A stretch of DNA of 53,236 nt from a virus. Lineage: Duplodnaviria > Caudoviricetes. The stretch is taken from positions 1 to 53,236 of the IMG/VR virus record IMGVR_UViG_3300035099_000117. One strand, written 5' to 3'. The translations under genes and the position numbers were made by a program. Of the stretch, positions 51,071 through 52,032 are shown piece by piece. Every line of letters begins with the position of its first letter. Position 1 is the stretch's first letter. Under the pieces are notes generated by a model. It had not been told where the DNA came from, did not search any database, and saw only the letters and a list, made by a program, of their open reading frames with translations.

Positions 51071-51571
51071 TCAGCCCATGACGCGGCGCAGCCAGCCGAG
51101 AAGGAATCGTTTCTTCTCGGGTTCGGATGCGTCCGGCTGACGAATAACCAGGTCGGCATAATAGTACGCCTGCCGAGCGCGGAACTCCCGCAGCAAAAGC
51201 TTGGGCTCCAGAGCATTGGCCGCTTCGCGCGTCTTCGGACCGAACATGCCGTCGATAACTACGGGACCGACGGAGAGATAACGTATCGCCTCTTGGAAGA
51301 TCCGGACAGCAGGTGGACGTCCGACATTCACGCCGAAGTCGAATAGTTCGTCGGCGACTTCCTGGCTTGAGATCCCGTCATAGAGCGGATTCCAGTACTC
51401 CGCGCGATAGATTTCCTTCGCTCGCTCGACGGTCAAGGCAGCGATGTCGATGTTCGGGTGGAACCGCTTCGAGATGCCGAATCGGGTCTCTCCCCCTGGA
51501 TCGAGCAAATCATGGACATAGCCTCCCTCCCATGCTAGCGTTTTTTTGACAGATAATTCAAATTGGCTCAT
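51071..51571 (-). CDS. Endolysin, glycoside hydrolase family 108 with peptidoglycan-binding domain
   Basis: WEGGYVHDLLDPGGETRFGIS, IYRAEYW, LFDFGVNVG, IDGMFGPKT and RFLLGWLRR motifs. Confidence 0.93.
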   Translation of the reverse strand: MSQFELSVKKTLAWEGGYVHDLLDPGGETRFGISKRFHPNIDIAALTVERAKEIYRAEYWNPLYDGISSQEVADELFDFGVNVGRPPAVRIFQEAIRYLSVGPVVIDGMFGPKTREAANALEPKLLLREFRARQAYYYADLVIRQPDASEPEKKRFLLGWLRRVMG

Positions 51572-51576
51572 ATTAT

Positions 51577-52032
51577 TTACCCTTGGTTCCTTTTGATAAG
51601 CCGATCTGTGATTGGATCTCTTCGTGTATGCCGAGGCCCAACAAATTTTTGGTCTTTTCCCAATGCAGTACCTACTTGACTTAACTTATGGCTGATTCTT
51701 AAGAGCGGTGAGATTTCATTGAGAAATCTTCTAGCATCTGCGGAATAAGCCCGCCAGTGAAATACTAATCCGTAACTCCCTTTATTTTGTGTTACCAAAC
51801 CAATACCCAATTTTTGCTTAATTGTGTCCAGAATTGATCGCTCTTTTTGAGAAATGGAAGCTTCTAACCTATACCGGCCTCGACCATGGTGATAGCAACC
51901 ACACGAACTTTCTCCCTCAAAAAAGCCAGCGAGCCAAACAAGAAAATCACCTTGCGGGTCGAGAACATCGTGCACCCATCCACCTTCCCAAACGAGCGTT
52001 TTGTTGACCGCGATGTCGAAACTTGCCATCAT
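51577..52032 (-). mobile_element. Single-motif LAGLIDADG homing endonuclease fused to the original endolysin N-terminus
   Basis: FLVWLAGFFEGESS, ISQKERSILDTIKQKLGIG and FLNEISPLLRISHK motifs; AT-rich; first 28 aa duplicate the endolysin start. Confidence 0.85.

Follow-up and report, generated by a model that had tools for sequence, protein, structure and literature searches.

A probable LAGLIDADG homing-endonuclease cassette, lacking both intron and intein, at the start of a phage endolysin gene of the GH108 family

By the usual view, a homing endonuclease has to reside in an intron, an intein or an intergenic site if its host gene is to be spared. In the virus record that we studied (53,236 bp, rated 96% complete, and analyzed over its whole length, hereafter the window), an endonuclease reading frame opens with endolysin-like codons and stands directly ahead of a complete endolysin gene, which raises the question of how the 5′ end of a phage lysis gene came to be present twice with an endonuclease in between. 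We conclude that the locus is probably a LAGLIDADG homing-endonuclease cassette, with neither intron nor intein, seated at the 5′ end of a phage GH108 endolysin gene.

The fused reading frame and its neighbors

The locus belongs to a lysis-type gene row on the minus strand near the right end of the window, and the features of this row are given below in the direction of reading on that strand. The row includes a hydrophobic protein of 139 aa and one of 211 aa that weakly resembles an Rz-like spanin (E 4.6e-4). On the left flank lies a 33-aa ORF for a small hydrophobic protein (52144..52043), which recurs at L004:1522-1623 in a related metagenome contig; as far as 52043, the DNA of the record has about 91% identity to this contig and to a second one, L005. 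Past the TGA stop of this ORF (52045..52043), the order is a T, the Shine-Dalgarno sequence AAGGAGG (52041..52035), AC and two consecutive ATGs, the second of which, at 52029, lies 5 nt from the Shine-Dalgarno sequence and the earlier, at 52032, just 2 nt from it. The ATG at 52029 opens a fused ORF of 150 codons (52029..51577), which reads MASFDIAVNKTLVWEGGWVHDVLDPQG and then continues into a LAGLIDADG domain. Its leader (52029..51955) is a first copy of codons 1–25 of a GH108 endolysin, in frame with the endonuclease; codons 26–27 (51954..51949) are attributable to either side, giving a leader of 25–27 codons. There follow a single-motif LAGLIDADG core of 123 codons (51948..51580; GC 0.42, GC3 0.33), a TAA stop (51579..51577), a gap of 5 nt (51576..51572) and a complete endolysin of 166 aa with GH108 and PG_binding_3 domains (51571..51071), which is preceded by a weak Shine-Dalgarno sequence, AAGGG, within the final endonuclease codons. 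An in-frame GTG at leader codon 19 (51977..51975), after GAAGGTGGA, is a possible alternative internal start that would give a much shorter leader.

Because the endonuclease lacks a start of its own and is joined in frame to about 25 endolysin codons, it would be translated from the strong ribosome-binding site of the endolysin; and because a complete endolysin begins 5 nt past the endonuclease stop, lysis would need no splicing. Both halves of this layout had been proposed in the first-pass annotation. The in-frame endolysin 5′ fragment that supplies AAGGAGG and a start is borne out by the ORF layout and by the profile match of the leader described below, and the intact endolysin that restarts 5 nt after the endonuclease stop is found with its ATG at 51571 and both of its Pfam domains.

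The downstream protein matches Glyco_hydro_108 (1.4e-20) and PG_binding_3 (2.2e-12) in Pfam as well as PHROG 315 (endolysin, 9.5e-38), and it keeps all 50 invariant columns of a 17-sequence alignment, with the EGG and DPGG motifs present. Judged by these sequence features, the gene is a GH108 endolysin. The protein is 92% identical to P0005 (encoded at L004:1738-2235) and 86% identical to that of a second related contig, L005. As the sole query in a viral-contig scan, the endolysin found one relative, at 27%, and blastn of the 1.9-kb region against 50,697 phage records gave no match. Likeness to L004 stops at 51054, and the region downstream of the endolysin is therefore mosaic. Past the endolysin stop, the gap at 50947-51070 is AT-rich (GC about 0.40), and a promoter-like TTGACT-17-AATACT lies downstream of the endolysin on the minus strand (50981..50953); a scan for promoters and terminators gave nothing decisive.

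At the level of sequence, the likeness of the leader to endolysin starts is far above chance. An HMM of 17 endolysin relatives matched the leader over positions 1–28 (E 6.5e-9), and with the same HMM none of the other 150 endonuclease-family proteins fell below E 0.2. In addition, tblastn of the fused ORF on its own genome led to the endolysin start (E 6.2e-9), and against 120 endolysin N-termini the score of the leader was reached by none of 1000 shuffles. The leader and the downstream copy are identical at 17 of 27 residues and 50 of 81 bases. Compared with the endolysin starts of L004 and L005, the leader is identical at just 53 and 54 of 81 bases, respectively, and would therefore derive from another allele lineage. 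Its composition is host-like (GC3 0.59), and AlphaFold models it as disordered (pLDDT about 55).

A 179-nt contig of run X2 matches 51959-52088 at 125 of 130 positions (5 differences), a span that takes in the tight ribosome-binding site between the last part of the 33-aa gene and codons 1–24 of the leader, past which the contig has 47 letters unlike the record. Because this contig carries the leader and parts from the record at codon 24, the leader is best read as a natural endolysin start. Between 52311 and 52497, X2 also agrees with the record at many positions where runs X3 and X4 differ. These alignments place in a closer relative a leader-type start that adjoins the 33-aa gene and diverges from the record at the fusion point. 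A protein search with residues 1–40 of the fused ORF, of a kind that needs shared 5-residue words and similar length, matched only the query itself, and so found no intact endolysin with this leader; a degenerate leader-peptide pattern had no match in the viral contigs.

Turning to the endonuclease, the Pfam model PF00961 (LAGLIDADG_1) scores 23.1 bits on the fused ORF, exactly at its cut-off of 23.1, and a profile built from four relatives collects 20,387 family members at E ≤ 1e-3. The closest relatives by identity are P0002 (53–55%), P0125 (53%), P0130 (50%) and P0127 (46%). Free-standing relatives, P0125, P0130 and P0003 among them, start with a Met seven residues ahead of a W-(I/L)-A-G-F motif, and in alignment this Met falls on P25 of the fused ORF; moreover, the fused ORF and P0130 have a C-terminal tail, VGPRHTRRDP.., in common. 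On this evidence the enzyme is full length, its own start being the only part lost. AlphaFold predicts a core (residues about 30–130) with pLDDT of at least 95 and an alpha-beta-beta-alpha-beta-beta-alpha fold (H25-40, E41-47, E53-61, H64-74, E78-84, E87-95, H96-109). In Foldseek this model finds its best matches in I-CreI (together with engineered variants of it), I-CvuI and I-MsoI, with E values of 7e-7 to 3e-5, a probability of 1.0 and 20–26% identity, the top E of 7e-7 belonging to I-CreI variants. The acidic residue of the motif, the predicted fold and the profile match all assign the protein to the single-motif, I-CreI-like LAGLIDADG endonucleases. One-motif LAGLIDADG enzymes act as homodimers, and with one motif per chain a homodimer is therefore expected here.

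The motif itself, LAGFFEGES (51933..51907), retains the acidic E40 and has Ser in place of its final Gly. Of 35 aligned single-motif sequences, 34, comprising all of the relatives, have G here and only the protein of the record has S; G also stands here in 248 of 252 motif matches among 151 family proteins. The substitution of GESS for GEGS, to which the first-pass annotation had drawn attention, is thus real and rare, and it makes the activity of the endonuclease uncertain. A pseudo-palindrome scan for a homodimer target found no stretch of at least 8/11 in L004 or L005, and the single pseudo-palindrome in the record (51485..51464) is within chance. The fused ORF found no relative as a query in the viral-contig scan, and tblastn of the endonuclease core against phage records gave five distant matches at 28–34% identity. 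A distant relative of the endonuclease (32% identity) lies at L078:3001-3297, on a contig titled uncultured archaeon, and is the sole match in species-representative genomes.

Endonuclease-free relatives and the edges of the replacement

Scanning metagenome contigs with the endolysin alignment gave 67 loci. Two contigs, L004 and L005, are syntenic with the record, with about 91–95% DNA identity in the upstream genes and 90% and 84%, respectively, in the endolysin gene. Both have, after the 33-aa ORF, a spacer of 114–115 nt and then the endolysin ATG, and this spacer is wholly absent from the record. The spacer (L004:1624-1737 and L005:1467-1581) is conserved and non-coding. Runs X2–X4 have no cover over the endonuclease, which we did not score as evidence, using only the contigs of X3 and X4 that join the two flanks. 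In the X3 contig, 51544 and 52043 are separated by 141 other letters, a length equal to the 114-nt spacer of L004 plus 27 nt, and in the X4 contig 51493 and 52043 are separated by 193 other letters, which replace 549 nt. The element-free relatives to which the first-pass annotation had looked for comparison are thus at hand in L004, L005 and the X3 and X4 contigs, all of which lack the endonuclease.

By this alignment, the record differs from L004 and L005 by a replacement, in which a segment of 498 nt (52042..51545), bounded on the left by the TGA of the 33-aa ORF, stands in place of 141 other bases in the endonuclease-free relatives and the spacer has also been removed. A clean insertion at DPGG|ET does not describe the difference from these relatives. 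The first-pass annotation correctly recognized the break at the catalytic motif: the fusion lies at D24/P25–G27 of DPGG, the point at which the X2 contig stops matching.

The right-hand edge can be followed along the downstream endolysin. Its codons 1–9 (MSQFELSVK, 51571..51545) are AT-rich and cannot be aligned with the endonuclease-free alleles. These nine codons have a GC content of 0.27, resembling the endonuclease core, and GC3 rises from 0.30 in codons 1–10 to 0.47 in codons 11–27 and 0.71 in codons 28–166. Compared with L004, the first 30 bases are identical at 19 positions and later 30-base blocks at 24–29. Over bases 31–81 (codons 11–27), by contrast, the endonuclease-free allele of L004 agrees at 48 of 51 positions, all three differences being third-position changes to A. 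On these comparisons the visible right-hand break falls at codon 9/10 of the endolysin and not at ETRFG. Of the earlier description of an AT-rich restart that becomes GC-rich again after ETRFG, the AT-rich part stands for codons 1–9/10; the break does not lie where it was drawn, and the return at ETRFG rests on 17 codons. The associated claim that the downstream N-terminus as far as ETRFG is element-specific, recoded and immune to cleavage is not supported, given the near-identity of bases 31–81 to L004.

The composition of the window singles out the same segment. Its lowest-GC stretch of 369 nt starts at 51504, and every 369-nt stretch with a GC content at or below that of the endonuclease starts between 51466 and 51591. 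The second-lowest GC block of the record is at 40001-40400 (0.465, against a mean of 0.595). A second small swap is found at 52796-52915, where the X3 and X4 contigs hold 51 other letters against 118 nt; it corresponds to the proline-rich C-terminal tail of the 139-aa membrane protein, and L004 and L005 align there at 9 of 60.

The endonuclease family of the cassette was found within the flanks of none of 68 related metagenome endolysin loci (L003–L070), nor at any of 11 additional viral loci, two or more of which seem by their length to be contigs already counted. With the cassette in this genome only and in 0 of 79 related loci, spread by homing was therefore not observed. Sliding identity upstream of the cassette against L004 and L005 showed no gradient, and in the absence of a trend it does not tell which copy is the resident one.

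Competing readings and a possible route of entry

A group I or other intron holding the endonuclease ORF, with the endolysin spliced from leader codon about 27 to ETRFG, would account for an ORF that is in frame with an exon-like upstream leader, and group I introns are known from phage lysin genes. However, no Rfam intron family was found at E ≤ 1 on either strand of 50500-52800, only 5 nt and endolysin coding sequence lie outside the ORF, which leaves no room for a ribozyme core, and the downstream copy opens with an ATG and an N-terminus of its own that run colinear with the native gene of L004. We consider an intron very improbable, in keeping with the splicing-free arrangement proposed at the outset. 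A Hammerhead_II match at 52709-52754, whose 20.1 bits fall short of the gathering score of 37, was taken as chance, and an intein is ruled out by the TAA at 51579..51577, the endolysin's own ATG and the lack of any Hint or intein domain in Pfam. We give even less credence to an assembly chimera or a collapsed strain mixture, for which it can be said that related strains co-occur in the same sample type. A 954-nt contig from run X1, built by a different assembler, covers 51357-52310 with 0 differences and spans both junctions; since X1 may be the source sample, this contig excludes an assembler artefact and is not independent biological replication, and by its bridging of both junctions it upholds the first-pass annotation against the chimera that the latter had named as a danger. 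The longest exact word common to the leader copy and the downstream copy is 8 nt, too little for one to expect a de Bruijn mis-join between the two. In run X1, one contig alone covers 51538-52029, and the flanks have further variant contigs.

The remaining alternatives accept the fusion and differ in its history or its present state. In the strict form of the model put forward in the first-pass annotation, the endonuclease was inserted at DPGG|ET together with a recoded 27-codon N-terminus, the recoding giving the carrier immunity. The position of the fusion point at the DPGG codons agrees with this, as do the X2 contig, which supports the leader as the resident-type start in a closer relative, the GC3 of codons 11–27, which is below that of the codons downstream, and the third-position changes to A that make up all of the differences from L004 in these codons. 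Against it, codons 11–27 match L004 at the same level as the rest of the gene, and they are therefore a natural allele and not an element-specific recoding, so that L004-type phages would be equally 'immune'; furthermore, the visible break is at codon 9/10, and the 114-nt spacer of L004 and L005 is missing too. We regard this form as distinctly unlikely. A dead relic, in which a non-cutting endonuclease was accidentally fused, is heading for deletion and moves only passively by phage recombination, has more in its favor: the Gly-to-Ser change is unique among the 35 aligned sequences, the Pfam score lies right at the cut-off, and the cassette is absent from all 79 related loci. On the other side, comparison with P0130 shows an intact ORF of full length, the predicted core is of high confidence with its acidic residue kept, and the ribosome-binding site is strong, and we think a relic unlikely, if by no means far-fetched.

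We therefore return to the intron-less, intein-less cassette as the probable reading, for which the following steps can be proposed. Somewhere in the ancestry of the locus, the enzyme would have cut an endolysin gene at the EGG..DPGG codons, and donor-templated repair would have copied in the endonuclease and, along with it, a spare 5′ end of an endolysin. The 5′ end that was there originally, now displaced, would then have become the leader of the endonuclease, and it may act as a left homology arm. Two histories might have led from there to the present record. In one, as the X2 contig suggests, the endonuclease and the spare 5′ end entered a resident leader-type gene at codon 24–27; in the other, a finished cassette (ribosome-binding site, leader, endonuclease and nine codons) replaced an L004-like spacer and start by homologous recombination. 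Under either history we infer that an insertion at the endolysin DPGG codons occurred in the ancestry.

Recurrence among relatives and comparison with known systems

Fusions of this kind may have arisen more than once. Among single-motif proteins with a recognizable motif (n = 34), the three longest N-terminal extensions are those of the record (31 residues ahead of the motif), P0127 (27) and P0002 (20). The P0127 leader aligns with the endolysin starts of P0098 and P0101 through ..T(L/I)GHEG and is followed by an apparent own Met of the endonuclease, and the first eight residues of P0002 match endolysin starts such as that of P0040. Against the 120 endolysin N-termini, the score was reached by 0 of 1000 shuffles for P0127, by 2 of 1000 for P0002 and by 389–956 of 1000 for four control leaders, the patterns for P0127 and P0002, which are known from their proteins alone, having been picked after sight of their sequences. 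The narrow endolysin HMM gave E 6.3 on the P0127 leader and no significant match on that of P0002, and neither protein had a match as a query in the viral-contig scans. Searching the leaders of P0127, P0002 and P0001 with the Pfam GH108 model gave no match and was uninformative, since the leader of the record is itself unmatched.

Because P0127 and P0002 begin with endolysin-like starts of differing length, repeated capture is suggested. We regard it as a fairly strong lead that proteins of this endonuclease subclade appear to have been fused repeatedly to GH108 starts of about 8, 17 and 25 codons, from different endolysin subfamilies. Going further, the subclade could be a dedicated parasite of GH108 endolysin 5′ ends that homes without intron or intein by means of a spare start, the displaced starts becoming both initiation region and left homology arm; the three fusions, on three different contigs, would then be independent captures, and endonuclease-free alleles like that of L004 may be survivors with a resistant 5′ sequence. 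We offer this extension tentatively, as a possibility somewhat short of an even chance. If the pattern in P0127 and P0002 is true, it would amount to a repeated strategy directed at the catalytic-motif codons of a widespread endolysin family, and to a tractable system for how free-standing endonucleases enter coding sequences.

In an unrelated viral contig (L074:2992-4057), a 172-aa GH108 endolysin is preceded, at a distance of 215 nt, by a single-motif LAGLIDADG ORF of 110 aa that has its own start. A 72-aa ORF lies between the two, the endonuclease is a more distant one, and the arrangement was seen at one of the seven viral loci examined. It is possibly the unfused state of the same association.

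In having one motif per chain, and in the best structural matches of its predicted fold, the enzyme resembles I-CreI, I-MsoI and I-CvuI, which are encoded in group I introns of organelle rRNA genes. Unlike that group, it carries a 25-residue, endolysin-derived disordered leader and Ser for the last Gly of the motif.

Among phages, the nearest parallels are T4-type MobA (topoisomerase large subunit, genes 39/60) and MobE (nrdA of Aeh1-like phages), which lie inside ORFs without an intron or intein; cassettes of this type add fresh coding pieces at both the N and the C terminus, and they are known to be present in some phages and missing from others that are almost identical (bioRxiv 10.1101/2022.08.31.505936). 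As in those cases, a phage endonuclease cassette lies here inside an ORF, and near relatives are without it. As described in that source, MobA and MobE are HNH enzymes that split the host gene into two proteins, with MobA adding translational bypass, whereas here the enzyme is of the LAGLIDADG type, the host gene is kept whole by duplication of its 5′ end, and the endonuclease is fused to host codons. The free-standing Seg and Mob endonucleases of T4-like phages spread by 'intronless homing' (PMC2988022, PMC2330249, PMC2790892). Like them, the present gene adjoins conserved genes and varies in presence among relatives, and its spread would entail co-conversion of the flanks. In the accounts cited, Seg and Mob genes have their own starts, encode GIY-YIG or HNH enzymes and carry no duplicated fragment of the target gene, unlike the case here. 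Cassettes like the one in this record yield odd "truncated endolysin-endonuclease fusion" calls in phage annotation.

The closest likeness lies in fungal mitochondria, where endonuclease ORFs are described in frame within a gene, with a duplicate 3′ end, in atp6 of Allomyces macrogynus and in atp6 and cox2 of Phlebia radiata (PMC4019555), and where in the Ophiostomatales rps3 is fused in frame to a LAGLIDADG ORF (PMC7902536). Our literature search of full texts with limited sets of terms found no published LAGLIDADG gene fused to a duplicated endolysin 5′ end, and the arrangement, known from fungal mitochondria, is apparently undescribed for phage lysis genes. It would provide a third route in phage, whereby an essential late gene has its 5′ end duplicated and its expression signals taken over by the endonuclease. 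Of the features of duplicated-terminus cassettes, an in-frame ORF, a second copy of the gene end and element-free alleles are found at this locus. Like the mitochondrial cassettes described in these sources (LAGLIDADG or GIY-YIG), the endonuclease ORF lies inside a protein gene without an intron or intein and is accompanied by a second copy of the displaced end. The mitochondrial cassettes duplicate the 3′ end, which leaves the gene with its start and strands the former tail, whereas here the 5′ end is duplicated and the endonuclease, unlike theirs, takes over the ribosome-binding site and start of the gene. Their host is an organelle respiratory gene and ours a phage lysis gene, and the cassette is thus the 5′-end mirror image, in a phage lysis gene, of the mitochondrial type.
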